A stretch of 64,000 nucleotides of DNA from Vicinamibacteria bacterium (GTDB lineage: Bacteria > Acidobacteriota > Vicinamibacteria > Vicinamibacterales > CAVVIG01). Within the stretch, counting starts at the first letter, position 1. Each line of letters opens with the position of its first letter. Below are positions 5,376-55,170 of the stretch, one piece after another. A program made the position numbers and the translations under genes. The stretch covers positions 38,141 to 102,140 of the forward strand of contig JBGPKK010000001.1 in NCBI GenBank assembly GCA_041485905.1, given 5' to 3'. The notes beneath the pieces were generated by a model. That model was given only the letters and a program-made list of their open reading frames with translations. It searched no databases and was not told the origin of the DNA.

Positions 5376-6931
5376 GCGGGCACCGCGAGGACGTCGATCA
5401 TACCGCGCGCCTTGTCGAGTGTCTCGCGGTACTCCTGTTCGGGGTCCGAGTCGGCCACGATCCCGCCGCCGGCGCTGAAGTACACCCGGCCGCCGCGTGC
5501 GACGGCGGTGCGGATGGCGATGCTGCTGTCGAGCGGCCCGGTGACGCTCCAGTATCCGATGGCGCCGCAGTACACGCCCCGCGCCGATGGCTCCAGCTCG
5601 GCGATGATCTCCATCGCGCGCACTTTCGGGGCGCCGGTAATGGAGCCACCGGGAAACGCCGCACGCAGCAGATCGGCCCCGTCCGCGCCGGGCGAAAGCT
5701 CCCCGACCACGGTCGAGACCAGGTGGTGGACGGTGGCGTAGCGCTCGAGCGCGAACAGCTCGGGCACGCGGACGGTGCCGGGAGCGCACACGCGGGATAA
5801 GTCGTTTCGCATCAGGTCGACGATCATCAGGTTCTCGGCGCGATCCTTCGCGCTCTCGGTAAGCACCACGCCGAGCGCCGCGTCATGCTCGGGTCCCACG
5901 CCGCGTGGACGGGTCCCCTTGACCGGGCGCGTCTCGACGTGCCCGCCGACGTCCACTTGCAGGAAGCGCTCGGGCGACGCGCTGAGCACGACCGCGTCCG
6001 GAAAATCCAGATAGGCGGCGAAGGGAGCAGGGTTCCGCGTGCGCAGCCGCCGATAGAGCGCCCACGGCGGCTCCTCGAGCGGCGCGTCAAAGCGCTGAGA
6101 CAGGTTGGCCTGAAAAATGTCGCCGGCGAAGATGTATTCACGCACGCGGGCGACCGCATCGAGGTAACCCCTGTGCGTGAACGACGATCGAATCGCAAGG
6201 TGCGGGTCCCACCATCCACCCTCGACCGGATAGGCTGGCGCCGGGGCGTCCCGTGCAGTCGTCAGTCGACGGTCGTCAGTCGACAGTCGATCGACGACCG
6301 ACGACTGTCGACTGTCGACTGTCGACTGTAACCGCGCCCGCACGTCGGCCGCGCGTCGAGCGGCGCGGCGAGCGCGGGCCGCTGGTGATGTTTCCGGTAG
6401 GCCGGTGGAAATCAACCATGCACGGGATGCGTCGTGATCCCATGCCAGCACCCAGTCGTACACGCCGAAGACGAGGTCGGGCAGCACGAGATCATCGTGG
6501 CGTGGCGCCGGAAGGCGCTCGAGCGCGCGGCCCCAGTCATATGCCACGTAGCCGGCGGCGCCTCCCTGAAAGGGCGGCAGCCCAGGCACCGGATCAGCAG
6601 CGTGCGGGGCGAGCCATCCACGAACGGCGGCGAGCGCGTCACCTGCGACGAAGGGCGTGGTGATGGCCGGCAGCCCGCTGCGCATCTCGAGGCAATCGGT
6701 CCGCGTCCCTTTGCTGCGCACGACGGCCACCGGATCGGCGACGAGAAAGGAATAGCGGCCAAGACGCGTTCCCGGCGCTGCGCTGTCGAGAAACAGGCGA
6801 TACGGAAGTCCCTCGAGCCGTTCGCAGCAGCTCGAGGGATCGGGCGGTGGAACCAGTTCCTCGACGAGCGGAACGACGTTCAAGATACCCTCAGCGGTAA
6901 GTGTGAGGTCTGAAGTCTCAAGAGTGCGCAC
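5372..6931 (-). CDS. pabB: aminodeoxychorismate synthase component I, with a repeat-encoded in-frame insert
   Basis: ORF track. YIFAGDIFQANLSQRF, PFAAYLDF, GTRPRG and SITGAPKVRAMEIIAELEPSARGVYCGAIGY are chorismate-utilising-enzyme motifs. Residues about 202-225 (QSTVDSRQSSVVDRLSTDDRRLTT) are encoded by the heptamer array at 6256-6328. Confidence 0.9.
   Translation of the reverse strand: MRTLETSDLTLTAEGILNVVPLVEELVPPPDPSSCCERLEGLPYRLFLDSAAPGTRLGRYSFLVADPVAVVRSKGTRTDCLEMRSGLPAITTPFVAGDALAAVRGWLAPHAADPVPGLPPFQGGAAGYVAYDWGRALERLPAPRHDDLVLPDLVFGVYDWVLAWDHDASRAWLISTGLPETSPAARARRAARRAADVRARLQSTVDSRQSSVVDRLSTDDRRLTTARDAPAPAYPVEGGWWDPHLAIRSSFTHRGYLDAVARVREYIFAGDIFQANLSQRFDAPLEEPPWALYRRLRTRNPAPFAAYLDFPDAVVLSASPERFLQVDVGGHVETRPVKGTRPRGVGPEHDAALGVVLTESAKDRAENLMIVDLMRNDLSRVCAPGTVRVPELFALERYATVHHLVSTVVGELSPGADGADLLRAAFPGGSITGAPKVRAMEIIAELEPSARGVYCGAIGYWSVTGPLDSSIAIRTAVARGGRVYFSAGGGIVADSDPEQEYRETLDKARGMIDVLAVPA
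6256..6328. repeat. Palindromic heptamer array (CAGTCGA-type arm followed by TCGACTG-type arm) inside pabB
   Basis: cagtcgt cagtcga cggtcgt cagtcga cagtcga | tcgacga ccgacga ctgtcga ctgtcga ctgtcga ctg. cagtcgacagtcga and tcgactgtcgactg are perfect reverse complements. Confidence 0.9.
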
Positions 6932-6965
6932 AGTGCAGACTTCAAACTTGAGACGTGAGACACGC

Positions 6966-8414
6966 TTACGGCTCCCGCTCGTTTGGATTCCGCCCGCTCT
7001 GCCGTGCCGTGTTCTGCGTCAGCCGCACGTGCGCGGACTTGTCCTCGTCTGGCGGCGTGAGATATCCCCACGACAACGCCCCTTCCTGGCGATAGGTCTT
7101 GCCAAGCGTCACCGCGAGGCTGGCGCGCGCCAGTTCCTTACCCAGGTAAAAAGCGTGCGTCGGTTCGTTGACGTCGAGCTGCGCGAAGATGGCCTGCAGA
7201 TCCGTGCCGCGGACGAAGCGATCGCTGTTCAGCACGGTGATCGCCTCGTGGTCGGTGAAGATGCGGAAATTGGGATCGGTGATGCCGGACTGCAGCGCGC
7301 GGAGCTCGTCTTCAGTGAAGGTGAGCACGGCCGGATCCTTCACCGTGACGAGGCGGTCGTCCACACCTTTGGGGATCGTGGGTTGTGTGACCGCGTAGTG
7401 CATGAGCCGTCGCGCCACATCCACTTCGCGCACGGCGCCGCGCGCCCATGGGATGACTTCTGTCGTGAGCACCGTGCGCACGCCCAGTTCCTGGCAGACG
7501 GCGATCAGCAGAGCGTTCACGCCGGTCGAGTCGGCCGCGGTGAGCTCGGTGAGGTTGCCGATTCCCATCAGCATCTCCGCATCCGGATACCGTCGCCGCA
7601 CCTCAGCGTAGCGCTCGAGTGACGCCATGAAACCGAAGCCGATCGGCTCCAGGATCGGATCGATCAGGCACGGGACGCCCCACCGCATGAGCTTCTCGAG
7701 ACTGGGGTCCAGCGTGTCCAACGCGGCGCCGAGATCGGGCACCACGACCACGCGTGCGCCGGTGCCGGCGAGGTCGCGCGCGGTCTCGATGTTCGAGCGG
7801 TTCACGCTCAGCACGAGCTCGGCTCCAGCCGCGACCGCCGTGCGGATCTCGTCCGCGTCGAACGTATCGACGCTCACGCGCATCCCGGCCGCGGTGAGCT
7901 CGCCGACGACGTCGCCCAGCGCGGGGAAAGCCAGACCGGGGGTGCACCCGATGTCGATCACGTCGGCGCCAGACAGACGGAAATAATCCGCCGCGGCGCG
8001 CAGGGCCTCGCGCGACAGCCTTGGCGCATTGTTGATCTCGGCCAGGATTTCGATGTCCCAGGCGCCGTATTCGCGTGTCGCCGATGCCCGACCGAAGTGT
8101 TGCGGGATCTCGCGCAGGTCCTTGGGCCCTTTCTCCACCCGCACGCCGAGCTTCTCGCCGATCACCTGCGGGGACCCTTCGCACAGCCCTGGGATCAGCA
8201 CCAGGTCCGTGCCCTCCGGCACGTCCTGCCGATCAAGGTTGCGCGCGATCCAGTCGGTCGTCATGAGCGCCGCGACCGTGATCCGGAGCACGCTGACGTC
8301 GTACGCAAAGGGCGGCGCCATCTCGGCGAGGACGCGGCGGAGCGCCGGCTCGGCGAGTCGGCCGGTGACGAACAGCACGCGGCGCGACTCGGTCAGCGGG
8401 CTGGGGCTCTCCAT
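6966..8414 (-). CDS. dihydropteroate-synthase-like pterin-binding protein (H4MPT biosynthesis type)
   Basis: Start at MESPSPL (Met100 of ORF 6966..8711), ATGA overlap with the upstream stop. GADVIDIGCTPG is a pterin-binding-domain motif. Length and flanking domains fit the long DHPS-like proteins of H4MPT islands. Confidence 0.8.
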   Translation of the reverse strand: MESPSPLTESRRVLFVTGRLAEPALRRVLAEMAPPFAYDVSVLRITVAALMTTDWIARNLDRQDVPEGTDLVLIPGLCEGSPQVIGEKLGVRVEKGPKDLREIPQHFGRASATREYGAWDIEILAEINNAPRLSREALRAAADYFRLSGADVIDIGCTPGLAFPALGDVVGELTAAGMRVSVDTFDADEIRTAVAAGAELVLSVNRSNIETARDLAGTGARVVVVPDLGAALDTLDPSLEKLMRWGVPCLIDPILEPIGFGFMASLERYAEVRRRYPDAEMLMGIGNLTELTAADSTGVNALLIAVCQELGVRTVLTTEVIPWARGAVREVDVARRLMHYAVTQPTIPKGVDDRLVTVKDPAVLTFTEDELRALQSGITDPNFRIFTDHEAITVLNSDRFVRGTDLQAIFAQLDVNEPTHAFYLGKELARASLAVTLGKTYRQEGALSWGYLTPPDEDKSAHVRLTQNTARQSGRNPNEREP

Positions 8415-8776
8415 CAGCGCGGGTCGCCGCTCCGCACGAACTTGTTCGGCGTGCCCGTGAGTGCGCCACCGTCTGCCGGTCGCCAGAGTGCGACGTCCTC
8501 GATGCGGCGAGCCAGCGCGAAATCCTTGTCGGTGATTCCACCGGCGCTGTGCGTCGCCAGCTTGACCGTCACGCGGCCCCACGTCACTGCCAGATCGGGA
8601 TGATGGTAGGCGGCCTCCGCGATGTAGCCGATGGCGTTGACGAGCATGAGCGTCGTCGGCCACCCGTCGGTCTTGTACACACGGCGAATCCACCCGTCCT
8701 CGAAGTACCACCCGGGCAACTCGCTCAGGCGCCGGGCGATCTGCGACTCGTCGTATGTTTTCTCTTTATCTGACAT
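8414..8776 (-). CDS. pterin-4a-carbinolamine dehydratase-like protein
   Basis: ORF track. LPGWYFEDGWIRRVYK...AEAAYHHPDLAVTWGRVTVKLATHSAGGITDKD is the PCD/DCoH signature. Confidence 0.85.
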   Translation of the reverse strand: MSDKEKTYDESQIARRLSELPGWYFEDGWIRRVYKTDGWPTTLMLVNAIGYIAEAAYHHPDLAVTWGRVTVKLATHSAGGITDKDFALARRIEDVALWRPADGGALTGTPNKFVRSGDPR

Positions 8777-8791
8777 GCGAGCGGCCTCCTG

Positions 8792-9574: not shown

Positions 9575-9591
9575 CGAGGATCATACTAGAC

Positions 9592-10427: not shown

Positions 10428-10454
10428 TCCGTGTCCTCTGTGTCCTCCGTGGTG
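10428..10454. repeat. Short tandem repeat, period 9 (gtgtcctct gtgtcctcc gtggtg)
   Basis: Read directly. Lies just upstream of the likely mfnB start. Confidence 0.7.
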
Positions 10455-10469
10455 GAGAGTGTGATCGGC

Positions 10470-15352: not shown

Positions 15353-15353
15353 G

Positions 15354-16150: not shown

Positions 16151-16174
16151 TTTCGTGTTTTCGTGTTTTCGTGG
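16151..16174. repeat. Tandem repeat, period 8 (tttcgtgt x3)
   Basis: tttcgtgttttcgtgttttcgtgg, in the divergent intergenic region between the SDR and HisA/F-like genes. Confidence 0.8.
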
Positions 16175-34290: not shown

Positions 34291-35916
34291 TTAGACCGTC
34301 CCGATGACCTCCGGTCGCCGGATCCGTTCCATCTCCACCGGATAGTTGTCGAAGGACATCGTGTAGACCTTCTGGAACACCGGACGCAAATACTCCGTGA
34401 TGTGCTCGTCGAACGGGGGCTGAACCAGGAACTGCCGTCCGTTGCTGACCGAGCGGATCTCGCCGTCCTCGACCACGACTTCCCCGCTCTTGATCACGTA
34501 GCGCGGATACTCGAACATCAGGCTCGGATCCGGGTTCGCGTGATACAGCGCCACATCCGCGTCCGCGCCCACACCCAGGTGACCTTTCTGGGTGAGGCCC
34601 AGCGCGCGCGCCGGGCCCGCGGACGTGATGATGGCGATGTCGGACAGCGTGTACTTTCGATCCAGATCCGCCAGAACGATCCGCTTCTGCGCCTCCTCCG
34701 GCAGCCTGTTCACGCACTCGCGCCGGTACTCCACGTCCATCAAAAGACGGATCAGCTCCGGGTATCGCCAGAAACACGCCCCGTTGGGATGATCCGTCGT
34801 CAGGAAGATCCGCCAGGGATCGGTGATGAGGAGCAGCAGTTCCAATCCGACTGCCCACTGGATGGCGTTGACCAGCTTGTGCTCTTTGTACACGTAGGGA
34901 ACGATCCCGCATCCGGTCTCATTCTCCACGTCGAGGTTGCCCCACTTGTGGCCGGTGAGCTGATAGAGGACGTGCTGCCACGGGCCGTCGGCGGTGATCG
35001 TCACGGTGTTGCCGAACAGGATCGCCCCCGCGTCGGTCGTGAAGTTCGTATGCGTGTTGAAGTACTCGGCGACAGTGGCCGCTTCCGAGCGCATCGAGCC
35101 CCAGTCGTCTCCACCGTAGGAGTGGAATTGCAGGTGCGCGAGATGCGCCCGACGCCCCTCCAGGACCTTCATCGTCTCGATCGTCGTCGTGAAGTTGCCC
35201 GGAGCGCCGAGGTTGTTGCAGTGGATGTGGAGCGGGTGCGGCAGACCCAGATCGTCGATGATGGTCGCGAGGTCCGAGATGATCCTGGCCGGCGTCACTT
35301 TGCTGTACCCGTCAATCGATTCGAACAGCTTCTTGGCGTCGTGCCCGTACTTCCAGTTCACGACGCCCCCGGGATTGACTGCCTTGACGCCGTACGCCTT
35401 GGCCGCGCCGATCAGCCACGCCACGACGTGCCTGGCGCGTTCCAGTTCGCCCGCCTCCAGCAGGTCCAGCACGATTTCGTTGTTGGCCATCAACACGAGC
35501 GTGGACTTGTCGACGATGGGCGTGTCGTGCAGCTCTTCGTGCGTGTGTCTCGCAGAGAGCACCGGCATGGCGGCCTCGTTCACCGTCGTCCAGCCCATGC
35601 CCGCGTACAAGTACCCGGTGGCGAAGGTCGTGGGGGTGATGCCGCCGAGACCGGCACGGAACTCGGGCGTGTGCACGAACGGCAGCCCACGCCGCATGTG
35701 CTCGGGCGTCAGGCCGCGCGCGAAATTCAGCGCGGCTCCGGCCACGTGGGTGTGGACGTCGACGCCGCCGGGGAATACGACCAGGCCGGTGGCATCGATC
35801 GAGCGGCCGCCTTCGACCTGAGACACGATGCGGCCGTCGGAGATGCAGACGTCCTTGACGACGCCGTCGATCCCGTTGGCCGGATCGTAAACCTTCCCGC
35901 CTGTTATGCGCAGCAT
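34291..35916 (-). CDS. fwdA: formylmethanofuran dehydrogenase subunit A homologue (amidohydrolase)
   Basis: ORF track. MLRITGGKVYDP...GLVVFPGGVDVHTHVAG (HxH metal site). Confidence 0.9.
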   Translation of the reverse strand: MLRITGGKVYDPANGIDGVVKDVCISDGRIVSQVEGGRSIDATGLVVFPGGVDVHTHVAGAALNFARGLTPEHMRRGLPFVHTPEFRAGLGGITPTTFATGYLYAGMGWTTVNEAAMPVLSARHTHEELHDTPIVDKSTLVLMANNEIVLDLLEAGELERARHVVAWLIGAAKAYGVKAVNPGGVVNWKYGHDAKKLFESIDGYSKVTPARIISDLATIIDDLGLPHPLHIHCNNLGAPGNFTTTIETMKVLEGRRAHLAHLQFHSYGGDDWGSMRSEAATVAEYFNTHTNFTTDAGAILFGNTVTITADGPWQHVLYQLTGHKWGNLDVENETGCGIVPYVYKEHKLVNAIQWAVGLELLLLITDPWRIFLTTDHPNGACFWRYPELIRLLMDVEYRRECVNRLPEEAQKRIVLADLDRKYTLSDIAIITSAGPARALGLTQKGHLGVGADADVALYHANPDPSLMFEYPRYVIKSGEVVVEDGEIRSVSNGRQFLVQPPFDEHITEYLRPVFQKVYTMSFDNYPVEMERIRRPEVIGTV

Positions 35917-36000
35917 TGGGGAAATTGGGAATTAAGAATTAGGAATTCAGAATTCAGAATTCGAGCCACGAATTCCTAATTTCGAATTCTGAATTCATAA
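35917..36000. repeat. A+T-rich palindromic heptamer array filling the whole fwdB-fwdA intergenic space
   Basis: gaattaa gaattag gaattca gaattca gaattcg agcc acgaatt cctaatt tcgaatt ctgaatt cataatt. gaattcagaattcga and tcgaattctgaattc are perfect inverted repeats. Contains several GAATTC cores. Confidence 0.9.
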
Positions 36001-37344
36001 TTACGCGATTGCCGCGCGGACGTGCGTCTCGGGCGACCAGGCAGGCTTCGCGGCCACCGCCTCGCGGATGCGCCGGACGACCTCTTCGTCGGTCGGATAC
36101 GGCGACTTGAGCGCCGGCCGAAGCGGCAGGGGTATTTCGTCCATGCGATACGCAGTCCCCGGCGCGCTGATACCTGTGACCGCCGTGGTGATGTGCACGC
36201 GGGACAGGCGGCTCGTGTGAGTCACCTTGGGATCCAGCACGATCGTGGGAATGCGAGCCAGGTGATCGATGCCCGGCTGCGGCATCGTCGCTCCCGGATC
36301 CGCGCCGAGGATGAGCGCGGCGTCGTTGTCGCCGCGGACGATCAGGTCCACGGTCGAGAACTCCCCCGGATTGAAACGGGGGTAGCCCCGACTCAAGCTC
36401 ACACCGAACGGGTAGCCGGTCGACCAGCGCAGGACCATGTCCGATCCGGTGACGTTGCCGTGCCCTCGCATCGGCATGCACACGAACTTGGTGAACGCGT
36501 TCAGCTCCGCGGCCAGCGAGAGCACGCCCGCCGAGTTCATGTGCTTTCCACGGGTCATCGAGAGCCCCATGCCGAAGAAGATCACGCCGAATTTTGCGCG
36601 CTTCATTCGGTTGACGAGGTCCTGGAGTTGATCGACCGAGAGTCCGGTTTCCGCCACGCTCTCGGCATTGACCCTCTGGTTCTTGACAAGCGCGCGCAAG
36701 GTGGTGAGAACCTCGAAGTCCTTGCCCGGCCGAATCTGCAGGAAGAGGTCCGCAGCCTTCACGCTGGGCGTTTCGCGGATGTCCACCAGGACCATGAAGC
36801 GTCCCTTGCGCCCTTCCGGCACGAACCTGCCCTTCTGGGTCAGCGTGTATTTGGTGAAGTGCCGCGGGTGGCATTCCGCCGGGTTGCCGCCCCAGTAGAT
36901 GATGAAGTCGGCCCGATTCTTCACTTCGCCGAGCGTGCATGTAATCTTGCCACCCAACTGGGCGGCTATCTCAGTGGGGCCGTGTCAAAGCGAGGTGTGG
37001 CTGTCGACCACACCCCCGATCAACTCAGCCAGTGCCACGGCTTCCCGCTGGGCCTCGCACGTGATGTTGCTGAGTCCGTACACCAGTGGCATGTTGGCGG
37101 CATACAGGTAGTCGGCCGCGGCTGCGACGGCCGCGTCGAGAGTGGCCGGCTTCCCGTCGATCAGCGCGTCTGGAAACAGACGCTCCGCCGTGTGGTGTTT
37201 GAACCACGACTCGCCGAGACTGCAGGCGTTCTTGGCCTTGACGATGCGATCGCCTTCGGTGTGCAACTCGATGTCGTCACAGACGCATCCGCAGAACGTG
37301 CACGTGGCGTTGGGCACGACGTTGCTCGCAACGTTGAGGGTCAT
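36001..37344 (-). CDS. fwdB: formylmethanofuran dehydrogenase subunit B with an in-frame TGA (probable selenocysteine) at 36985-36987
   Basis: ORFs 36985..37482 (from MTLNV, Met47) and 36001..36957 are in the same frame, separated only by TGA plus 9 sense codons: ...GGVVDSHTSL-TGA-HGPTEIAAQLGGKITC.... The N-terminus has CTFCGCVCDD...C (Fe-S-like). The TGA is codon 120 and is followed by His. Confidence 0.75.
36953..36978 (-). promoter_or_regulatory. Candidate bacterial SECIS-like hairpin downstream of the fwdB UGA
   Basis: mRNA reads UGA CACGGC CCCACUG AGAUAGCCGCC CAGUUGGG: a 7-bp stem with one bulged U and an 11-nt loop, starting 7 nt after UGA. Folded by eye only. Confidence 0.3.
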
Positions 37345-37362: not shown

Positions 37363-37386
37363 TCTTGGTCTCGCTCTTGGTCTCGC
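37363..37386. repeat. Tandem repeat, period 12 (tcttggtctcgc x2), upstream of the fwdB start
   Basis: Read directly. Lies 19-42 nt upstream of the fwdB ATG on the coding strand. Confidence 0.75.
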
Positions 37387-44069: not shown

Positions 44070-44087
44070 GGGAAAAGTCCTTGGTCC

Positions 44088-44960: not shown

Positions 44961-45057
44961 AATCCCAAGGCAGGATGGAGGGACAAGGCGAGCGGGAACC
45001 GCGCCGGGAGAGACGCACGAGGGCGACAACCGCGCGTCGCCCTCGCGCTGAGGGTTT

Positions 45058-45570
45058 CTAGCCTTCGGCGCCGCCCGCGAACGGGTGCTTCGCCGTCTTC
45101 GATTTCGTGATGACCTCGTCGGCCTTCGGGATCCCCTTCAGGGCGCGGCTGATCGATTCCTTGGTTGCCTTGTAGTTGAAGTCGAAGATCTTCTTGTCGT
45201 CTTTCGCATCCCAGTGGATGAACACGCCGACAAGCACGCAGTAGTCGTCCACTTTGTCTTTCGGGATGGTGCCATCGGCCACCGAGTCGACGACCGCCCG
45301 CGCCACCGCCGCCTGCGCCGGCCCGAACATCTGCACCGCCTGCGTGGCGCCCTTGATCGTGACCTTGTTGAAGAGGATCGTGTCGGGCTTGGCCGCCAGG
45401 TTCGGCGTCACGACCGCGAGGAGGGTGCTGAAGCCGTCCTTCTGATTCGAGAGGGCATGAACGAAGGCAGACCCCGCAGGTCCCGATTTCGATCCGATGA
45501 TCAGATCGATGTGCGCGATCTCATTCCCGTCGCCGACCAGCGATTCACCGATGAAAAAGTCCGTTGCCAT
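45058..45570 (-). CDS. fae: formaldehyde-activating enzyme
   Basis: ORF track. [53 protein letters not shown] and KHPFA closely track Methylobacterium Fae as I remember it. A gaaaggag RBS precedes it. Confidence 0.9.
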
Positions 45571-46218: not shown

Positions 46219-48590
46219 GCTCCCGAATTTTTGGCTCAGGCATCCGGCGGCGGGAAGATCCGCGGCTGATTACCGGGACCGCGTTGTACACCGACGATCT
46301 GACGCTGCCGGCGATGGTCCACGCGGCCATGCTGCGCAGCCCGCACGCCTACGCGCGCATCACGAGGATTGACGTCAGCCGCGCGAAAGCGGCGCCGGGC
46401 GTGCTGGCCGCCTACACGGCCGCGGACATCGACGCGCTGAAGCCGGTGCCGTGCGCGTGGCTGCTGCCGAACGCGAACCTCAAGATCGCCGGCTACCCGT
46501 GCATGGCCAGGGACACCGTCCGCTACGTCGGCGACATCGTGGCGGTCGTCGTCGCCGAGACCGCGTATCAGGCGTACGACGCGCTCGATCTCCTCGAGGT
46601 GGACTACGACGCGTTGCCCGCAGTCACCGATCCAAAGGCAGCGGCCCAGCCCGGCGCGCCGCAGCTGCACGCCGACATACCAAACAACGAGGCGTTTCAC
46701 TGGGTGGTGGCTGGCGGCGATATCGACGCCGCCTTCAAGAACGCTGAAGTCATCGTCAAGGAGCGCATCGTTCAGCAACGGCTCATTCCCAACGCGATGG
46801 AGCCACGGGCCGCGCTCGCGCAGTGGAGCGGCGCGTCGGGAGAGCTGACGCTCTGGAACACGACCCAGAACCCCCACATCCTCCGCTACCTCACCTCGGT
46901 CGTCACCGGCGTGCCGGAAGACAAGCTGCGTGTGGTCGCCCCTGAAGTCGGCGGCGGGTTTGGCAGCAAGATCGCGGCGTATCCGGCGGACTTCATCACC
47001 TGTTTCTGCGCGATGACCTTGAATCGGCCGGTCAAGTGGAACGAAACGCGCAGCGAGAACTATCAGGCGACAACGCACGGCCGCGATCACATCCAGGAGG
47101 TCGAGCTCGCCGCGAAGAAGGACGGGACGATCCTCGGACTGCGCGCCGAGATCTGGGCGGGCATGGGCGCGTATCTGTCGACGGCGGCGCCCGGCATCCC
47201 GACGATTCTGCACGGCCTGATGCTGTCGGGCGTGTACAACCTGCCCGCCGTCAAGGAACACGTCCACGGCGTATATACCAACGCCACGCCGGTCGAGGCG
47301 TATCGCGGCGCCGGACGACCCGAAGCGACGTTCATGATCGAACGCATGATGGACAAGCTGGCGAGCACGATCGGGATGGATCCGGTTGACCTGCGGTTGA
47401 AGAACATGATCCCGCGCTTCGAGAACGGGCACACGGTCATCACCGGGCTCACCTACGACAGCGGCGACTACCCGGCGGGATTGAAGAAGATCCTGGATCA
47501 CGTGAAGTACAAGGAGCTGCGCAAGGAGCAGGCGGACGCGCGCAAGAAGGGACGCTACATCGGCATCGGCGTGGCGTCCTACGTCGAGATCTGCGGACTC
47601 GGGCCGTCACAGGTCGCCGGCGCGATCGGCTTCCAGGGAGGTCTGTGGGAAAGCGCCATCGTGCGCGTCCATCCCACAGGGAAGGTTCACGTCTTCATCG
47701 GCGCGTCGCCGCACGGTCAAGGCGAAGAGACGACGTTCGCCCAGCTCGTCGCCAGCGAGATCGGCGTCGATACCAACGACGTCAAGGTGTTTCACGGCGA
47801 CACCGACGTCACCCCGATGGGATGGGGCACCTACGGCAGCCGGACGACCGCGGTCGGCGGTGCGGCCCTGATCCTCGCGACGCGCAAGGTCAAGGAGAAG
47901 GCCAAGGTCATTGCCGCGCACCTGCTCGAAGCCTCGGTCGAGGACATGGACTACGCCGACGGCAGGTTCTTCGTGAAGGGATCGCCCGACAAGGCGAAGA
48001 CGATTCAGGAGGTCGCGCTGATGGCGCACCTGTCGTGGAACATGCCGAAGGACGTCGAGTCGGGACTCGAGGCGTCGATGTTCTACGACCCGCCCAACTT
48101 TACGTATCCGTTCGGATCGCACGTCGCGGTGGTCGAAGTCGATCCGGAGACGGGACAGATCGATCTCAAGCGGTACGTCGCGCTCGACGACTGCGGCCCG
48201 CAGATCAATCCGGTCATCGTCGAAGGCCAGGTGCACGGCGGCGTCGTGCAGGGTCTGGGTCAGGCGCTCTGGGAAGAAGCGGTGTACGACGAGAACGGGC
48301 AGCTGGTCACGGGGTCGATGCTCGACTACGCCCTGCCCCGCGCCGACACGCTCTGCGACATCGAGGTGATTTCGACGGTCACGCCGTCGCCGCATCATCC
48401 GCTTGGACTCAAAGGCGTTGGCGAAGCCGGCACGATCGCGTCGACCGTGACGATGTACAGCGCCGTGATGGACGGGCTCGCGCCCCTGGGCGTCCAGCCG
48501 CTTCGGATGCCGATGACGGCCGAACGCGTGTGGCGGGCCATTCAAGAGGGCAAAGCGCAAAGGGCAGAGGGCAAAGCGCAGAAGGCATAG
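46215..48590 (+). CDS. coxL: Molybdopterin large subunit, form-II CoxL-like (AYRGAGR active-site loop)
   Basis: Start at MSSRIFGSGIRRRED (Met61 of ORF 46035..48590), ATGA overlap with coxS. EVGGGFGSK; VEAYRGAGRPEA rather than the AYRCSFR of form I. The last about 14 residues are encoded by the heptamer array. Confidence 0.85.
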   Translation: MSSRIFGSGIRRREDPRLITGTALYTDDLTLPAMVHAAMLRSPHAYARITRIDVSRAKAAPGVLAAYTAADIDALKPVPCAWLLPNANLKIAGYPCMARDTVRYVGDIVAVVVAETAYQAYDALDLLEVDYDALPAVTDPKAAAQPGAPQLHADIPNNEAFHWVVAGGDIDAAFKNAEVIVKERIVQQRLIPNAMEPRAALAQWSGASGELTLWNTTQNPHILRYLTSVVTGVPEDKLRVVAPEVGGGFGSKIAAYPADFITCFCAMTLNRPVKWNETRSENYQATTHGRDHIQEVELAAKKDGTILGLRAEIWAGMGAYLSTAAPGIPTILHGLMLSGVYNLPAVKEHVHGVYTNATPVEAYRGAGRPEATFMIERMMDKLASTIGMDPVDLRLKNMIPRFENGHTVITGLTYDSGDYPAGLKKILDHVKYKELRKEQADARKKGRYIGIGVASYVEICGLGPSQVAGAIGFQGGLWESAIVRVHPTGKVHVFIGASPHGQGEETTFAQLVASEIGVDTNDVKVFHGDTDVTPMGWGTYGSRTTAVGGAALILATRKVKEKAKVIAAHLLEASVEDMDYADGRFFVKGSPDKAKTIQEVALMAHLSWNMPKDVESGLEASMFYDPPNFTYPFGSHVAVVEVDPETGQIDLKRYVALDDCGPQINPVIVEGQVHGGVVQGLGQALWEEAVYDENGQLVTGSMLDYALPRADTLCDIEVISTVTPSPHHPLGLKGVGEAGTIASTVTMYSAVMDGLAPLGVQPLRMPMTAERVWRAIQEGKAQRAEGKAQKA

Positions 48591-48650
48591 GGCAAAGCGC
48601 AGAGGGCATAGGGCAAAGGGGTTTTTGCCCTTTGCCTTTTGCCTTTTGCA
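48548..48650. repeat. Heptamer array pair: about 10 x GGGCAAA-type units, then 3-4 x TTGCCCT-type units (hairpin)
   Basis: gggcaaa gcgcaaa gggcaga gggcaaa gcgcaga aggcata gggcaaa gcgcaga gggcata gggcaaa ggggttt ttgccct ttgcctt ttgcctt ttgcact. Confidence 0.9.
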
Positions 48651-48666
48651 CTACGAGGTTCTTCTT

Positions 48667-49533: not shown

Positions 49534-49536
49534 AAG

Positions 49537-50626: not shown

Positions 50627-50732
50627 ATGACGCGCCGGTTGAGATTGTTGGGGTTTTGAAAGCCAGCAGCCTGGAAGGGGGCAATTCTTGTCCCGGTGCC
50701 GATGGCGTCTAATGGCAGATTCTGCGTCTCTG

Positions 50733-51461: not shown

Positions 51462-51583
51462 CGTCAGAATGAGCGCAGGCGAGCCGTGGCGCAATGGAAA
51501 AATTCTTCAGGCGCCCCCGCTTTAAATCGATCATTGCTTGAGTCCGGGACTCTGTACGGACCGTCTCTCTAGGCAAGCCATGC

Positions 51584-51618
51584 ATTCCTGATTCATAATT
51601 CCTAATTGTAAATTGCCC
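51584..51618. repeat. A+T-rich heptamer half-array (attcctg attcata attccta attgtaa attgccc) running into the coxE start codon
   Basis: Read directly. Same flavour as the arm next to the fwdA start. Confidence 0.85.
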
Positions 51619-52773
51619 TTTCTCTTCCACAACATCGTCCACTTCGGCCGGCTCCTGCACGCGCTTGGCCTGGACGTGCATGCCGGACGCATGCTCGATG
51701 TGGCCGGGGCGCTGGAGCACATCGACATCGGACGCCGCTCGGACTTTTGCGTCGCGCTGCAATCTCTTCTCATTCACCGCCCGCAGGATCTGCCGATCTT
51801 TGACGAGGCGTTCCGCGTGTTCTGGAAGCCGCCGCCAGGTGAATGGGCATCGACCGATCTGCGGGCCATGGGTGAACAGCGCCGCTCCGGAGCGCCCCAA
51901 GTCGATGTACCAGCGGCACAACCCGATTCACTGGACGATCCCTCGCTTCCCCTGCTCGCTGAGACCGTCCAGCGCATCGCGCCGAGAGGTTACAGCTCGC
52001 AGGAGGTATCGCGCGTCAAGGACTTCGAGCAGTTCACGGAGGCCGAGCTCGAAGCCGCGAAGGCGATGATCGCAGAGCTGACGTGGGACCTTGGGACGCG
52101 ACAGACTCGCCGCTGGAAGTCCGGCGACGGCAGGGTACTGGATTTCAGGAAGGTCATGCGCCGCAACCTTCGCTACGGCGGCGAACCGCTCGCGCTGCCG
52201 ACACGCGAGCGAGCGTCACGGCGCCGGCCGCTCGTGCTGCTCTGCGACGTCAGCGGATCGATGGAGCGGTACGCGCGCATGCTGCTGCATTTCATGCATA
52301 GTCTGGCCGCCGGCCTCGAACACGTCGAGGCGTTCGTGTTCGCGACGCGGTTGACCCGGATCACACGCGATCTCTCCGCGCGCGGCGGCCGCGAATCGCT
52401 GCCCACGATCCCGCGGCGCGTGCCCGACTGGGCCGGGGGCACGCGCATCGGAGACGCGGTGCGGACGTTCAACGTGCAGTGGGCGCGCCGCGTCATGGGA
52501 CATGGACCAGTCGTGCTGTTGATCTCTGACGGGTGGGATCGCGGGGAACCCGAGGTGCTCGCCCGCGAGATGAGCCGCCTCCAGCGAAGCTGTCATCGTC
52601 TCATCTGGCTCAACCCGCTGCTCGGATCGGCGGACTATCAGCCGCTGACGCGCGGGATGCAGGCGGCGCTACCGTTCGTCGACGATTTCCTGCCGGTGCA
52701 CAATCTGGCCAGCCTGGAAGCGCTTGCGCGGCACCTCAACAAACTGCCGGCGCGCCGCGCGGTCAGGGCATAG
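51613..52773 (+). CDS. coxE: VWA-domain protein (CoxE-like)
   Basis: ORF track (TTG start). LVLLCDVSGSM MIDAS motif and VVLLISDGWD. Confidence 0.85.
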   Translation: MPFLFHNIVHFGRLLHALGLDVHAGRMLDVAGALEHIDIGRRSDFCVALQSLLIHRPQDLPIFDEAFRVFWKPPPGEWASTDLRAMGEQRRSGAPQVDVPAAQPDSLDDPSLPLLAETVQRIAPRGYSSQEVSRVKDFEQFTEAELEAAKAMIAELTWDLGTRQTRRWKSGDGRVLDFRKVMRRNLRYGGEPLALPTRERASRRRPLVLLCDVSGSMERYARMLLHFMHSLAAGLEHVEAFVFATRLTRITRDLSARGGRESLPTIPRRVPDWAGGTRIGDAVRTFNVQWARRVMGHGPVVLLISDGWDRGEPEVLAREMSRLQRSCHRLIWLNPLLGSADYQPLTRGMQAALPFVDDFLPVHNLASLEALARHLNKLPARRAVRA

Positions 52774-52835
52774 GGCATAGGGCAAAGGGCAAAGGGCAGA
52801 GGGCAGAGGGCAAAGGGCAGAGGGCAGAGGGCAAA
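52766..52835. repeat. Heptamer array, 10 x GGGCAxA (left arm of the four-helix-bundle cassette)
   Basis: gggcata gggcata gggcaaa gggcaaa gggcaga gggcaga gggcaaa gggcaga gggcaga gggcaaa. Contains the coxE stop codon. Confidence 0.95.
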
Positions 52836-52839
52836 AGAC

Positions 52840-53217
52840 TCACACTGATGGGGATCCGCGGTACGGTGAGGCACGAGCCGTTCTGATGGCGCTGATGACC
52901 ATCGCTCGAAGTTGGTTCGCTTCGCCGAGTTCCCATTCGGCTTCATCCTTCGTCACGACCGCAATCTTCAGAGCGACGCGAAGCCACCAGATGGTCTCGC
53001 GCGCCTCCTTTCGGGAAATACTCAGCTTTGCAATGAAATCCGGCTTCGACTGGCCTTCTTGCGCTTCTTCTGCGTTGGAGCCGATCGAGGTGCCGCAACG
53101 CATTAGCTGTGACGCCACGTGTCGAGCCGCTGGCCCGCGCGACCAGATCTTCTCCGACAGCTTCAAGATGCAGCAGGCAAATTCGAACGCTCGCTCGCAG
53201 ATGATGGAGTGGGTCAT
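52840..53217 (-). CDS. four-helix-bundle protein (23S rRNA intervening-sequence protein family)
   Basis: Start at MTHSIICERAFEF (Met9 of ORF 52840..53241). SIGSNAEEAQEGQSKPDFIAKLSISRKEARETIWWL matches that family's hallmark as I remember it. Confidence 0.75.
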   Translation of the reverse strand: MTHSIICERAFEFACCILKLSEKIWSRGPAARHVASQLMRCGTSIGSNAEEAQEGQSKPDFIAKLSISRKEARETIWWLRVALKIAVVTKDEAEWELGEANQLRAMVISAIRTARASPYRGSPSV

Positions 53218-53346
53218 GACGCGCTGGAGTTCAAGGTTCACGCCACCGGAAATGTCACGAAAGGCTGGTAAAAACAGATGCCGGCATTGGCGGTTTGAAA
53301 TTCATACATCCCCCCGCGCACCGCGGAGATCTCTTTTTGTGCGATC

Positions 53347-53381
53347 TGCCCTTTGCCCTTTGCCCTTAGCCCTTAGCCCTT
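53347..53381. repeat. Heptamer array, 5 x TGCCCTT/AGCCCTT (right arm, inverted relative to 52766-52835)
   Basis: tgccctt tgccctt tgccctt agccctt agccctt. Contains the coxG stop codon. Confidence 0.95.
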
Positions 53382-53803
53382 TCCTGAAGGCACCCGAAGA
53401 ACCGGTCCATCATCATCTTCGAGACCGTGCCGAGCAGACGCTGACCAACCCGCGCCATGAGACCGCCGACCTGCCCCTGACCTTTTACGTTCACGATCGT
53501 CGTGTCGTTCTGTTCCACGAGCTCGACCGTCGCCTCGCCCTTGACAAAGCCGGCCTTGCCGGTGCCTTCGACAACCAGTCGATAGGAGTGCGGCGGCCGT
53601 TTGTCGAGAATCGCGACCGTCCCCGTGTACTGACCGCTGACCGCCGCGACGGCCAAGGTCAACGACGCTCGATATTGATCCTCGCCAATCGGCTCCAACC
53701 GATCGCAACCCGGCAGACATTCCGCAACGACGATGGGATCGATGAGCAGATTCCAGACCGCGGTGGGAGGGGCGGCGAAGGTGTAAGAAGCGGCAAGATC
53801 CAT
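53366..53803 (-). CDS. coxG: SRPBCC-fold CoxG-like protein
   Basis: ORF track. VWNLLIDPIVVAECLPGCDRLEPIGEDQYRA...VSGQYTGTV...GGLMARVGQRLL fits CoxG. Confidence 0.8.
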   Translation of the reverse strand: MDLAASYTFAAPPTAVWNLLIDPIVVAECLPGCDRLEPIGEDQYRASLTLAVAAVSGQYTGTVAILDKRPPHSYRLVVEGTGKAGFVKGEATVELVEQNDTTIVNVKGQGQVGGLMARVGQRLLGTVSKMMMDRFFGCLQERAKG

Positions 53804-53812
53804 GACGGGGAT

Positions 53813-54610
53813 CTACGGCTTCGTCACGGTGTACTCTGCCGGAATCTTGAATACCTCGTCCGCAATCGGCGCCAGGGAAACTTCGGTGACCTTGCTGGTC
53901 AGCTTCATCGGCAGCTTGAACGCGTCAACGAGCGGCGAACCCCCTTCGAGGGAGACCTCGAAGTCGGTGAGGCACGTGATGCCTTCAGCGCGGGCGAATA
54001 GCTGGTTCAGATCGACGCTGCCCGAAGACTGCGCCGTGCCGGGAAGGTTCGCCGCGATGGCGCGCTTCTGAAACGCGACATACTCCGCAGCACCAGGCGC
54101 GTTGTTCGACACCCACACGACGCCGTTGGACGTCAGCCGGGCGTCCTTGAACGTTTCGGCTGCTTCCTTGGACATCTGCCGCTGTGCCATGTCGACCGAC
54201 ATCGATACTTTGAACTCGTCGCATCGCTGGCCGAAGAATGTCTGCGACCGTCCCGTTGGCTCGAGAGTGAGGTCGACGTTCGGCATCGTTTCCCGCGCCT
54301 CAGCGGTCGGCGCATCGGACACCTGCGCGATTTTCTGCGGGCCGATCAGATGGATCACCCGACCCGTCGTCAGGTCGACAATGGTCGAAATCGTCGCGCC
54401 CTGGGACTCGGAATCCGTACGCGACTTCGTACCCTTGATGCGCGTGATCGCACGCGCTGTGCTGATGTTCGGCGCGCCTTCCATCGTGAGGGTCGTTGTC
54501 ATGGTAATCGTGACGTCGGCGCGAAGCACGGTCGAGCACATCGCGATCAGGGCAAGCGCTATCCATGACGACTGTCGACTGACGACGGTCGACTGTCGAC
54601 TGCTGATCAT
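53813..54610 (-). CDS. secreted protein or lipoprotein, unknown function
   Basis: ORF track. N-terminus MISSRQSTVVSRQSSWIALALIAMCSTVLRA. The charged n-region is encoded by the heptamer half-array. Confidence 0.65.
   Translation of the reverse strand: MISSRQSTVVSRQSSWIALALIAMCSTVLRADVTITMTTTLTMEGAPNISTARAITRIKGTKSRTDSESQGATISTIVDLTTGRVIHLIGPQKIAQVSDAPTAEARETMPNVDLTLEPTGRSQTFFGQRCDEFKVSMSVDMAQRQMSKEAAETFKDARLTSNGVVWVSNNAPGAAEYVAFQKRAIAANLPGTAQSSGSVDLNQLFARAEGITCLTDFEVSLEGGSPLVDAFKLPMKLTSKVTEVSLAPIADEVFKIPAEYTVTKP
54567..54602. repeat. Heptamer half-array (cgactgt cgactga cgacggt cgactgt cgactgc), same flavour as the pabB insert
   Basis: Read directly. Lies at the junction of the CHRD gene stop and the downstream gene start. 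Confidence 0.9.
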
Positions 54611-55047
54611 CTTGATGCTGCGTCGGGTAACAACCAGCCCCAGAGGTTTCCCTCGGGCGCCTTCTCGCTGTGTATCTGTATGTAGAAGCGGCTGCTCTTG
54701 ACAGCCTGAACCAGTTCCGGCGTCAGCATGAACGTGCCGGCGATCGTCCCGCTCGTGGCCTTCGTGACGGTGAGATCGAAAATCACCGGTCCGCGCACCC
54801 CACGCGGGCCGAGATGAATCTGCGCAATCGTCGCGGCGCTCTTCATCCCGTCGAACGTGCCGCGAACCGACAGGCTGCGCCCGGTCAGCGTCGCGGTAAC
54901 CGAACCTGATCCGGTGATCCCATCCCGCGTGCTCGCCACCGGCACCGGCGAGAGGCGCGCCTTGTACGTCTCGCTCTGAGCCGAGGTTATCGGCCCGAAC
55001 AACAGAGTCGTCGTCACGATCAGGACCGCAATACGACGTCGCTGCAT
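54607..55047 (-). CDS. CHRD-domain protein, secreted
   Basis: ORF track. Signal peptide; AQIHLGPRGVRGPVIFDL and FYIQIHS....GNLWG are CHRD-like. Confidence 0.65.
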   Translation of the reverse strand: MQRRRIAVLIVTTTLLFGPITSAQSETYKARLSPVPVASTRDGITGSGSVTATLTGRSLSVRGTFDGMKSAATIAQIHLGPRGVRGPVIFDLTVTKATSGTIAGTFMLTPELVQAVKSSRFYIQIHSEKAPEGNLWGWLLPDAASR

Positions 55048-55081
55048 CGTGCCTCCGCTTGGATTGTACAGGGGTCTGGCG

Positions 55082-55170
55082 GGGCAGGTGGGTCAGGTGC
55101 GCCGGGTAGGTAACCCACCCGACCTACACGACCTACCCCGACTCACCCGACCTACCTGCCCTACCCGACC
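55082..55170. repeat. G+C-rich inverted repeat array (GTAGGTC/GACCTAC flavour) just downstream of the amidase stop
   Basis: gggcaggtgggtcaggtgcgccgggtaggtaa / cccacccgacctacacgacctaccccgactcacccgacctacctgccc. The outer 8 nt gggcaggt and acctgccc are perfect complements. Confidence 0.8.

Follow-up and report, generated by a model that had tools for sequence, protein, structure and literature searches.

Complementary heptanucleotide tandem arrays in a soil Acidobacteriota genome and the four-helix-bundle gene cassette that they enclose

The GGGAATC repeats of Xanthomonas and the GGGGAYT repeats of Nostoc are tandem 7-nt arrays of 2 to more than 20 copies, found genome-wide and mostly between genes (Rehm et al. 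2015, PMC4692102). Each Xanthomonas genome has 70–75 inverted (convergent) GGGAATC pairs, most of which are transcribed. Copy numbers in both systems vary between related genomes while the sites are kept, and the G-rich repeats form G-quadruplexes (G4) in vitro (PMC4692102). Heptamers also make up the cyanobacterial STRR and the TAACTGA repeats of Beggiatoaceae, Cyanobacteria, and Bacteroidetes, whose patchy phylogenetic spread suggests transfer (MacGregor 2015, PMC4679880). In the 23S rRNA intervening sequence (IVS) of Coxiella, terminal inverted repeats form a stem that is cut by RNase III and carries the S23p ORF in its loop, and 2–3 tandem GACAGAT heptamers, variable between strains, occur between the 5' terminus and the ORF, just upstream of the latter (PMC4990558). 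The ORF-bearing IVS of Coxiella, Leptospira, and Brucella are regarded as selfish (PMC4990558).

We analysed a stretch of 64 kb from the genome of an uncultured soil member of the Acidobacteriota (hereafter, the window). Its heptanucleotide tandem arrays form a family that is specific to the lineage and that gains, loses, and alters copies rapidly. These arrays belong to the known class of heptanucleotide repeats that includes the cyanobacterial STRR and the inverted GGGAATC pairs of Xanthomonas. We found no literature report of this class in Acidobacteriota.

Heptamer arrays in the window

The lag-7 scan of the window identified 8 segments, compared with 0.5 in shuffles, and the other lags between 4 and 13 remained at background (0–2 segments versus 0.2–0.9). 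The excess of tandem arrays is specific to period 7. Heptamer arrays are nearly absent from more than 500 kb of unrelated loci with similar G+C. We confirmed individual arrays with TRF, the lag-7 scan, and direct reading of the sequence. The initial annotation had placed 12 sites in one family, of which 8 were retained: six period-7 arrays (6256–6329, 35917–36000, 48548–48650, 52766–52835, 53347–53381, and 54567–54602) and two degenerate ones, at 55082–55170 (period 7–9, hairpin fold retained) and 51584–51618 (a clean (AATTCCT)5.6 array in the ortholog, contig L003). The other four were rejected. The site at 42521–42569, within an ATP-grasp ORF, has no period-7 signal and a fold with z = -1.5; the 82 bases that blastn leaves unaligned there have a counterpart in L003 that is likewise unaligned and also exactly 82 bases long, which excludes an indel at this site. 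The sites at 16151–16174, 10428–10454, and 37363–37386 have 2–3 copies with periods of 8, 9, and 12, in numbers equal to the shuffle expectation. The heptamer arrays are not an artefact, since every base of the 48548 array (the only one so checked) is identical between two independent metagenome assemblies (L001 and L002) and similar arrays are also present in finished plasmid records.

Four arrays have complementary arms placed back to back and fold as long RNA hairpins (z = -3.2 to -4.9), as had been predicted for arms with opposite spacer bases. One of them (6256..6329, minus strand), which reads (CAGTCGW)~5 then (TCGACTG)~5 on the plus strand, lies in frame within a pabB-like gene (5372..6931) and is translated into about 25 residues of an inter-domain linker. 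PabB structures in the PDB align on both sides of it (query residues 36–175 and 248–512), the linker is hypervariable among 120 homologues, and a PabB homologue with 89% identity (P0122) shares the peptide QSTVDSRQST. Its RNA fold has -57.3 kcal/mol (z = -4.9). The hairpin at 35917..36000 (minus strand; (GGAATTN)~6 and (GAATTCN)~4; z = -4.5) contains no ORF and forms the entire spacer between the stop of the gene at 36001..36957 and the start of an amidohydrolase gene (34291..35916; Pfam); contigs L003 and L025 hold the same unit family. Another ORF-less hairpin (48548..48650, plus strand; z = -3.2) is made of (GGGCAAA/GCGCARA)~10 with a 21-nt super-period, followed by (TTTGCCY)4. The final 11 codons and the stop of a CoxL-like gene lie in its long arm, and the hairpin ends 17 nt before the start of CoxM. 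The last of the four (55082..55170, minus strand) combines the degenerate G-rich array with a short complementary arm in the amidase–CHRD spacer, where it overlaps the amidase stop at 55161 (z = -3.6); in L003 the junction holds a repeat hairpin of another kind.

Two further arrays are single arms. The (GACTGWC)5 array at 54567..54602 (minus strand) is read as the N-terminus (MISSRQSTVVSRQSS) of the ORF at 53813..54610. The degenerate, ATTCCTR-like arm at 51584..51618 (plus strand), recognised from the sequence and from its ortholog (L003, 11869–11907), lies directly upstream of the CoxE start, and its RNA fold is not significant. The initial annotation correctly located the arrays at gene borders or in frame: the confirmed sites are at the stops of CoxL, CoxE, and CoxG, at the start of the ORF 53813..54610, in operon spacers, and in the PabB insert. 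Arrays survive where they are tolerated, i.e., in intercistronic spacers, in last or first codons, and in a disordered protein linker.

At the orthologous junctions, relatives have no array, an array of other units, or a different number of copies. Six relatives (L003, L004, L021, L023, L024, and L026) lack the array of the CoxL–CoxM junction, and different arrays are in place in L020 and L022; the CoxM–MoxR junction shows the reverse pattern. The array at 54567 has 5 copies in the window versus 28 in L003, where they lie in the 5' untranslated spacer. At the one locus that carries the identical protein P0110, represented by 10 contigs of separate samples, the number of units ranges from about 5 to 15 in the 5' arm and from 5 to 10 in the 3' arm.

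A cassette with a four-helix-bundle gene

The arrays had been described as not explained by any annotated feature type. This does not hold, because inverted heptamer pairs are known in Xanthomonas and cyanobacteria (PMC4692102) and because a gene lies between two of the listed arrays. These are the GGGCA arrays at 52766 and 53347, which serve as the arms of a single 616-bp element with a four-helix-bundle gene inside. The element is on the minus strand. Its 5' arm (53347..53381; (AAGGGCW)5 by TRF and sequence) overlaps the final codons and stop (53366–53368) of CoxG. It is followed by a leader of 129 nt (53218..53346), which reaches the start codon, and by the gene itself (52840..53217; ATG at 53217). 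The first unit of the 3' arm (52766..52835; (UNUGCCC)10 on the minus-strand RNA, by TRF and sequence) lies 3–4 nt past the stop of the gene, and on the plus strand this arm begins on the stop codon of CoxE. The 125-aa product belongs to PF05635 ("23S rRNA intervening sequence protein", S23p, or Avd-like; Pfam 1.7e-18), matches PDB 2rld (2.9e-17), and has 432 homologues, many of them titled "four helix bundle protein". Length comparison shows that the leader keeps its length class (123–146 nt) in five other Acidobacteria-like cassettes, and its sequence is not kept. It may contain its own promoter, in which case the mRNA of the gene may be without the 5' arm. The two arms pair in the MFE and centroid folds alike. 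In comparison with L003 and L004, neither of which has the element, the cassette is an insertion; L003 keeps a two-unit remnant of the 5' arm. Within the 64 kb, only the GGGCA flavour has a cassette, the other flavours being GTCGACW, GAATTCN, and GGTAGGTC.

Of 31 independent four-helix-bundle loci, about 27 are flanked by heptamer arrays, with complementary arms where both arms were detected, and the flanked loci with named organisms represent five phyla. Cassette arrays are present in all six independent Acidobacteria-like loci (soil contigs), in all nine plasmid loci (from Nostoc, Anabaena, Planktothrix, Bernardetia, Chlorohelix, and Treponema, i.e., Cyanobacteriota, Bacteroidota, Chloroflexota, and Spirochaetota), and in about 12 of 16 viral-contig loci, the other 4 being without arrays at the threshold used. 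In whole plasmids the arrays cluster at the gene (3 of 4 in 50 kb, 1 of 1 in 38.6 kb). The repeat unit varies among cassettes, and an AGGGC core is kept among those whose proteins are 66–73% identical to that of the window. A scan of 793 kb, blind to gene positions, found inverted array pairs with gaps of either at most about 50 nt or 380–575 nt. All pairs of the latter class contain a four-helix-bundle gene, those other than the window cassette coming from loci fetched for carrying it. The arms of complementary arrays are either adjacent, back to back, as in the ORF-less hairpins, or about 0.5 kb apart with the gene between them. In the cassette, about 130 nt separate the G-rich arm from the downstream start codon, and the C-rich arm follows shortly after the stop. 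This arrangement recurs around homologous genes in soil contigs of Acidobacteria-like type, plasmids from four further phyla, and viral contigs. ORF-less hairpins made of the cassette's own unit are found nearby in the window (4 kb), in two viral contigs (L094 and L095), and in a Planktothrix plasmid (L078).

Proposed RNA stems and the rival explanations

We consider it somewhat probable that the arrays form the arms of RNA stems like those of an IVS, whether or not a gene lies between them. The arms would work at the RNA level, where they could pair in numerous registers whichever strand is transcribed. The resulting long duplex would loop out the intervening sequence and would be an RNase III substrate, as in the ORF-bearing 23S rRNA IVS. 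Such cutting would explain why the host gene survives when the element lies inside an operon or, in other bacteria, inside 23S rRNA. Hairpins that lack an ORF would be the gene-free version of the same element, acting as processing or 3'-end-stabilising structures between cistrons, and the arrays would lengthen or shorten by replication slippage and by the copying of one arm from the other. We infer RNA processing and any role of the four-helix-bundle protein, a candidate for the putative array-binding protein that the initial annotation had proposed. The initial annotation had suggested RNase III processing or an mRNA element; the IVS-like architecture of one pair and the RNA folds agree with this, and RNase III action on the window arrays is proposed by analogy. 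The sense-strand fold is at least as stable as the antisense one in 9 of 10 hairpins, with more G-U pairs on the sense strand, an asymmetry that could partly stem from G+T strand bias in this small sample. Several points count against RNA stems. Besides the possible promoter in the leader, the restriction of the window cassette to the GGGCA flavour, and the viral-contig loci without arrays, the cassette arms of the window are matched imperfectly, with bulges in the fold; the single arms at 54567 and 51584 form no stem on folding; and the presence/absence polymorphism means that each individual hairpin is dispensable.

A rival explanation is that slippage accounts for everything, the arrays being functionless, neutral by-products that arise from chance proto-repeats, and their link to the gene a co-occurrence in repeat-prone genomes. 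The hypervariable copy number and the presence or absence of arrays among orthologs would fit, as would the in-frame copies, which are confined to a linker that is variable in all relatives, and the CoxL-end array, which begins on unit-like native codons (GAAGGTAAA in L004 and GCAAAAGGC in L003 versus GAGGGCAAAG in the window). A polymerase-slippage account of heptamer excess has also been proposed in literature cited in PMC4692102. We nevertheless find neutral slippage rather unlikely, given that one small set of units is found repeatedly, at sites that are not linked and in further genomes (GACTGWC and AATTCCT in L003, GGAATTR in L025), that arm complementarity is far above chance, that the geometry of the cassette is constant over five phyla, that the AGGGC core outlasts such protein divergence, and that plasmid arrays concentrated at the gene are otherwise missing from those plasmids. 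Repeat-made intrinsic terminators or attenuators are scarcely credible: the inner hairpin of the 48548 array (48610–48638), with its T-rich 3' arm, fits a loose terminator pattern, but it is the only site flagged, the total of 18 for the region is within about 2 sd of shuffles (11.8 ± 3.4), several hairpins lie within coding sequence or between cistrons of one operon, and no U-runs follow the other stems. The earlier statement that these are not U-tailed terminators is borne out apart from this loose match.

Mobile DNA of the REP/RAYT or MITE kind would make the hairpins non-autonomous copies and the cassette the autonomous form, whose protein mobilises them. The hairpins are indeed dispersed at gene ends, with filled and empty orthologous sites, the protein gene lies between inverted repeat copies like RAYT genes between REPs, and ORF-less hairpins of the cassette unit occur near cassettes (in the window, L094, L095, and L078). 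We regard such mobility as improbable, because no transposase, RAYT, or recombinase adjoins the cassette, there are neither target-site duplications nor fixed ends (array ends merge into native codons), leader ends are not conserved, lengths vary continuously, and no catalytic activity is known for the protein, a small helical bundle. The REP/MITE-like proposal of the initial annotation therefore survives as an analogy, and its exclusion of CRISPR and of a transposase was right. The GGGCANA arrays might instead form G4 in DNA or RNA that modulate the transcription or translation of neighbouring genes, as proposed for Xanthomonas GGGAATC. Strict (G3N1-7)4 motifs occur at the two cassette arms and nowhere else in the 64 kb, and the G-rich strand is the sense strand at the CoxL, CoxE, and CoxG stops, matching the placement in Xanthomonas and Nostoc (PMC4692102). 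Yet G4 are impossible for the GTCGACW and GAATTCN flavours and for most cassette units elsewhere (AATTCAA, AAGTAAA, ATTAGTG, and TAATTCG), their folding competes with pairing to the complementary arm, and the property common to the arrays is arm complementarity rather than G-tracts, which makes this explanation highly improbable.

Comparison with known systems

REPs are single imperfect palindromes, and RAYT is a Y1 transposase. The window arrays resemble REP/BIME and RAYT systems (REPtrons) in having hairpins dispersed at gene 3' ends and a gene between inverted repeat copies, and differ in that the repeats are tandem heptamers and no Y1 transposase is present there. With the Xanthomonas and Nostoc repeats they share the inverted pairs and a G-rich strand that is sense-oriented just past stop codons (PMC4692102). 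Unlike them, they occur in another phylum, in several unrelated units per genome, some not G4-capable, and in frame inside genes; PMC4692102 does not mention a bracketed four-helix-bundle gene. Period 7, intergenic location, 7-nt-step indels between strains, and contig breaks in the repeats are shared with STRR and TAACTGA (PMC4679880), but TAACTGA sets are mostly direct and just upstream of starts, with one inverted case reported, and no associated gene was identified in that study (PMC4679880). The pairing of arrays with four-helix-bundle genes in at least five phyla may explain the long-puzzling class of heptanucleotide repeats.

The Avd accessory proteins of diversity-generating retroelements belong to the same Pfam family (PF05635) and fold family as the cassette protein (PMC10053308). 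Heptamer brackets are, however, not a described feature of these retroelements, and no reverse transcriptase was found among the flanking genes scanned against Pfam. Compared with the ORF-bearing IVS, the window element lies between two protein-coding genes rather than in rRNA, and its termini are heptamer arrays (5 and 10 units) instead of a unique 28-bp inverted repeat. Like them, it consists of a four-helix-bundle ORF in the loop of a long stem with complementary ends.

Heptanucleotide arrays at gene borders

The window has a G+C content of 59-71%. The nearest genomic relatives of its CoxM-like protein come from two uncultured Acidobacteriota MAGs, L003 (84% amino-acid identity) and L004 (74%), and a 100% identical copy of its PabB-like protein is found on a 134-kb NCBI contig. 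Tandem Repeats Finder identified period-7 arrays at 6256, 35929, 48547/48623, 52765, 53347, and 54569, and an array of period 7-9 at 55072-55170. A strict self-match scan gave five segments at lag 7 and none at lags 4-6 and 9-13, while the lenient scan gave 8 segments at lag 7 (0.5 in first-order shuffles) and 0-2 at other lags (0.2-0.9 in the shuffles). The units are 7 nt long, stand head to tail, and are in excess over other periods. They occupy 8 sites in 64 kb, and the same unit families recur in L003, in a metagenome CoxM relative (L025), and in soil and metagenome loci (L056-L069). Period-7 arrays are abundant in close relatives and nearly absent from unrelated loci with a comparable G+C content (>500 kb in all) that had been retrieved for other purposes. 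A JGI and a Logan contig, assembled from different samples, carry the 48548 array in identical form. This excludes an assembly artefact, a concern raised in the initial annotation.

The array family described in that annotation is therefore real and exceeds chance at lag 7, but four of its listed sites do not belong. The period-8, -9, and -12 sites are at chance level, since counts at lags other than 7 match those of the shuffles. The fourth, 42521-42569, lies inside an ATP-grasp gene and has neither periodicity nor a significant fold; the 82 bases left unaligned there by blastn face exactly 82 unaligned bases in L003, and there is thus no indel. The lineage is not strictly confined to period 7, because another metagenome CoxM relative (L022) carries long period-9 arrays, (CCGAACGNT)n, at 1-177 and 1036-1159, with inverted arms on both sides of the gene. 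At the left edge of the window (1-352), a high-GC3 ORF contains a 159-nt tandem duplication (approximately 2 copies, 82-90% matches).

Arrays are densest in a cox-like cluster encoding a molybdopterin subunit, an FAD subunit, a MoxR-type ATPase, a CoxE VWA protein, and CoxG, with genes for an amidase, a CHRD protein, and the tetrahydromethanopterin pathway nearby. Beside the cluster, 41741-45570 encodes a formaldehyde-activating enzyme, a methylene-H4MPT dehydrogenase-like Mpt_N protein, an ATP-grasp protein, and a DUF1464 protein. Complementary arms stand back to back at four sites (6245-6340, 35905-36010, 48535-48665, and 55060-55180), and the RNA folds of all four have z-scores between -3.2 and -4.9, in agreement with the hairpins initially proposed. 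The 54567 and 51584 arrays are single arms.

The placement of the arrays at gene borders or in frame was also upheld. The 48548 array encodes the C-terminal 11 residues of the CoxL-like protein and its stop codon, the 52766 array begins on the CoxE stop codon, the 53347 array spans the final codons and stop of CoxG, and the 35917 hairpin occupies an entire intercistronic spacer. Arrays are tolerated in coding sequence, where they create or reshape protein termini and linkers. Translation of the 54567 array yields the N-terminus of a secreted-looking protein (ORF 53813-54610, minus strand): the start ATG overlaps the CHRD stop (ATGA), and the heptamers encode the first 15 residues, apparently recruited to serve as the charged beginning of a signal peptide. 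Within the PabB homolog, the 6256 array is in frame. Solved PabB structures align on both sides of it, and the linker is 44 residues longer than in E. coli. The length and sequence of this linker vary in all 120 closest homologs, several of which have 7-residue (21-nt) repeats. Five of these proteins (P0127, P0162, P0174, P0181, and P0185) have other short peptide repeats in the same linker (PAPSLQP, PASSPQP, SER-rich); the linker is therefore a recurrent landing place for short DNA repeats.

A four-helix-bundle cassette and the turnover of arrays

Between CoxE and CoxG, the window is longer than both L003 and L004 by approximately 600 bases, which consist of the 52766 array, a minus-strand ORF, and three additional units of the 53347 array. 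The resulting cassette (52766-53381, 616 bp) encloses a gene at 52840-53217 whose product belongs to PF05635, "23S rRNA intervening sequence protein" (Pfam, 1.7e-18), and has PDB 2rld as its closest solved relative (2.9e-17). The minus strand of the cassette carries, in order, (AAGGGCW)5, a 129-nt leader, the 125-aa ORF, 3-4 nt, and (UNUGCCC)10. Both arms are paired in the MFE and centroid structures predicted for the 641-nt RNA of 52755-53395 on the minus strand (z = -3.2). On a Logan contig from ERR5029654, a gene with 94% identity (P0001) adjoins CoxG, apparently on the opposite strand relative to CoxG when compared with the window. The gene table from which this locus is known suggests an inversion of the cassette, as expected from recombination between inverted arrays.

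We studied turnover by synteny with L003 and L004 and with eight metagenome CoxM relatives; because the contigs of the latter are mostly 1-5 kb long, the broad comparison covers two junctions. The CoxL/CoxM junction holds a GGGCAAA hairpin in the window, a (GGGCTCA)n/(TGAGCCA)n hairpin in the relative L020, a period-9 array in L022, and nothing in six others. The CoxM/MoxR junction is empty in the window and holds (AGTCGTC)9 in L003, (CGCACCC)n in L020, a GGAATTR hairpin in L025, and a period-9 hairpin in L022. The comparison of orthologous loci suggested in the initial annotation thus revealed both filled and empty sites, along with changes in copy number. Individual hairpins are non-essential, since there are relatives without them. 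The 54567 array has 5 units in the window and 28 at the orthologous site in L003, where it is untranslated, in the spacer ahead of an MKRS... start. In L003, a clean (AATTCCT)5.6 is the ortholog of the degenerate 51584 array. The array at the end of CoxL begins on native codons already similar to its unit, a resemblance that suggests seeding at microhomology.

A minus-strand staphylococcal-nuclease-like gene (PF00565; 50436-51584) is inserted relative to both L003 and L004. Since it directly adjoins the degenerate AATTCCT array, arrays may mark the spots where extra genes enter operons. At 56650-58742, the window has two tandem DUF7790 genes that are absent from the syntenic L003 locus.

Array-bracketed genes in metagenomes, plasmids, and viruses

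Close homologs of the cassette protein number in the hundreds, and many of them come from very short contigs. The arrangement recurs at five further independent soil or metagenome loci (L054, L055, L056/57, L058/59, and L060-69). At all five, 123-146 nt separate the start codon from a 5' arm of (AGGGCNN) or (AGAGGGN) type, and a complementary array, the 3' arm, begins 7-17 nt past the stop. One locus encodes an identical protein (P0110) in contigs from 10 samples, whose 5' arms have approximately 5-15 units and whose 3' arms have 5-10; together with the 5 and 28 copies at the 54567 site, this is a polymorphism in unit steps at conserved positions. The lengths of the two arms were not significantly correlated among the four P0110 contigs with complete arms (rho 0.33). 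At least three contigs of this locus (L063, L066, and L068) start within an array, and the arrays disrupt short-read assemblies, in which several contigs begin inside them. An alignment of leaders from seven cassette sequences, representing six independent cassettes, has a mean identity of 45% and shows no shared end motif; the leaders therefore contain no conserved recombination site. A TTGCAGAAC(C/G)TGCAA palindrome is found in some leaders only.

A tblastn search of PLSDB retrieved 25 plasmid records: 15 from Nostoc, seven from other cyanobacteria, and one each from Bernardetia, Chlorohelix, and Treponema. Period-7 arrays flank the gene annotated "four helix bundle protein" in all nine plasmid loci that we read, and in at least seven of these loci they are inverted; the units are mutually unrelated (AATTCAA, AAGTAAA, ATTAGTG, ATGAAGG, GAAAGNG, AATCCCC/AATCGTA, GTCGGAR, GATTGCN). 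In whole plasmids the arrays cluster at the gene: three of the four arrays in 50 kb of a Planktothrix plasmid (L078) are located there and the fourth, 4.4 kb from it, has the cassette's unit, while the sole array in 38.6 kb of the Nostoc C057 plasmid is 43 nt from the gene's stop. Among viral contigs, about 12 of 16 independent loci have the cassette arrangement, one of them with period 8 (L085), and four have no arrays at the detection threshold used. Three viral contigs free of tandem arrays (L081, L083, and L089, at 2340-2500) have a 7-8-nt motif (TATATCAT, CCTTCAC, or ATTTCAC) upstream of the four-helix-bundle gene, spaced every 20-24 nt with small palindromes between.

A gene-blind scan of 793 kb identified inverted array pairs with gaps either of at most approximately 50 nt or of 380-575 nt. 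All pairs of the second kind enclose a four-helix-bundle gene; the scan includes loci chosen for carrying it, and outside these the only such pair is the window cassette. Hairpins without an ORF, made of the unit of a nearby cassette, occur in the window (48548, 4 kb away) and in two viral contigs (L094 and L095).

In plasmids of Anabaena cylindrica (L071, 1027-1860) and Nostoc TCL26-01 (L072, 1114-1690), the bracketed gene lies antisense between cas2 and cas1. Elsewhere it lies between helicase-related and N-6 DNA methylase genes (L074), between helicase-related and large hypothetical genes (L076), or next to tnsA and xisH/xisI (L077). Units of the ATTGCRG/CAATCTG type form an ORF-less hairpin on a soil contig (L056, 918-1000 and 19619-19762) and flank the gene on a Nostoc plasmid (L079, 11994-12480) and a high-GC viral contig (L090, 2366-2826). 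Such sharing hints that cassettes have moved between distant hosts.

Possible mechanisms and relation to known elements

Several classes of elements were considered and rejected. For a REP/BIME with RAYT, the bracketed gene belongs to PF05635 rather than to the Y1-transposase-like RAYT genes, and no transposase domain was detected in the neighbours scanned. A MITE does not fit, as array lengths vary continuously, filled and empty sites differ by no direct duplication, and the ends merge with native codons. As to a diversity-generating retroelement, the flanking genes scanned (CoxE, CoxG, CHRD protein, and amidase) include no reverse transcriptase. Nor are these CRISPR, as had been recognised initially: the units are 7 nt and contiguous, whereas CRISPR repeats are 23-50 nt, with unique spacers of similar length.

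The arrays could be explained in other ways. Neutral slippage as their origin accords with the copy-number changes in unit steps, and has to be weighed against the recurrent bracketing of one gene by inverted arms. Mobility at the DNA level, driven by the protein, would fit the filled and empty orthologous sites and sits less easily with the divergent leaders. Regulation by G-quadruplexes could involve the cassette arms, 52766-52831 (+) and 53349-53379 (-), which are the only strict motifs in the window (at least four G3 tracts, loops of 1-7 nt) and are not matched by the other array flavours. As for transcription termination, only 48610-48638 fits a loose terminator pattern and the total count is not above that of shuffles, consistent with the initial view that they are not classical terminators.

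We infer instead that the arrays act in RNA. Complementary arms would form the closing stem in the transcript of either strand, and arms of unequal length would still pair because tandem units allow many registers. Where the sense strand is known, its RNA equals or exceeds the antisense RNA in folding stability in nine of ten hairpins (by 0.2-16.6 kcal/mol) and has more G-U pairs, an asymmetry that is a modest hint of such action. By analogy with rRNA, the transcript of the host operon would loop out the insert and RNase III would cut the stem. A broader and rather improbable proposal is that the four-helix-bundle gene and its arrays are one self-propagating system, in which the protein recognises or helps generate 7-nt arrays of its own unit and the cassette seeds nearby ORF-less hairpins. 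It would be the common basis of heptamer repeats (cyanobacterial STRR, Xanthomonas, Bacteroidota, Acidobacteriota), multi-copy "four helix bundle protein" genes, and ORF-bearing 23S rRNA intervening sequences, and, if true, would unite three puzzles so far treated apart.

Cyanobacterial heptamer repeats were described decades ago and those of Xanthomonas in 2015, with no origin or function assigned (PMC4692102, PMC4679880). The Xanthomonas GGGAATC forms 70-75 inverted pairs per genome and is located at stop codons, on the sense strand, and the Nostoc heptamer is GGGGAYT (PMC4692102); three heptamers have been described in Calothrix, and TAACTGA occurs in Beggiatoaceae, cyanobacteria, and Bacteroidetes (PMC4679880). 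Since such repeats were already described, the core observation of the initial annotation is a new member of this class, and the window arrays taken alone add only a new phylum to it.

The closest parallel to the cassette is the 23S intervening sequence of Coxiella, where an S23p ORF lies in the loop of a stem formed by inverted termini and cut by RNase III, with 2-3 tandem GACAGAT heptamers, variable among strains, directly upstream of the ORF (PMC4990558). The same paper mentions an S23p structure from Xanthomonas campestris (PMC4990558), and heptamer-repeat taxa are thus carriers of the S23p gene. In a literature search with most subscription journals outside its scope, this paper was the only one found to bear on a link between four-helix-bundle genes and heptamer repeats, and none stated it in general. 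Like ORF-bearing 23S intervening sequences, the cassette has complementary termini that close a stem in the predicted fold and an S23p/PF05635 ORF within the loop. Unlike them, it does not interrupt helix 25 or 45 of a 23S rRNA gene but sits between the CoxE and CoxG genes, and Rfam at the gathering threshold finds no rRNA or other family in the whole window. In five phyla or more, complementary arrays enclose four-helix-bundle genes in a fixed geometry, and the enclosed unit is built like an rRNA intervening sequence. This bracketing rule could point to a candidate protein partner for the heptamer repeats and to an RNA mechanism open to testing, and it suggests an origin for rRNA intervening sequences. 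The value of the finding is the array-bracketed cassette and its wide recurrence, which tie heptamer repeats to elements of the intervening-sequence type.
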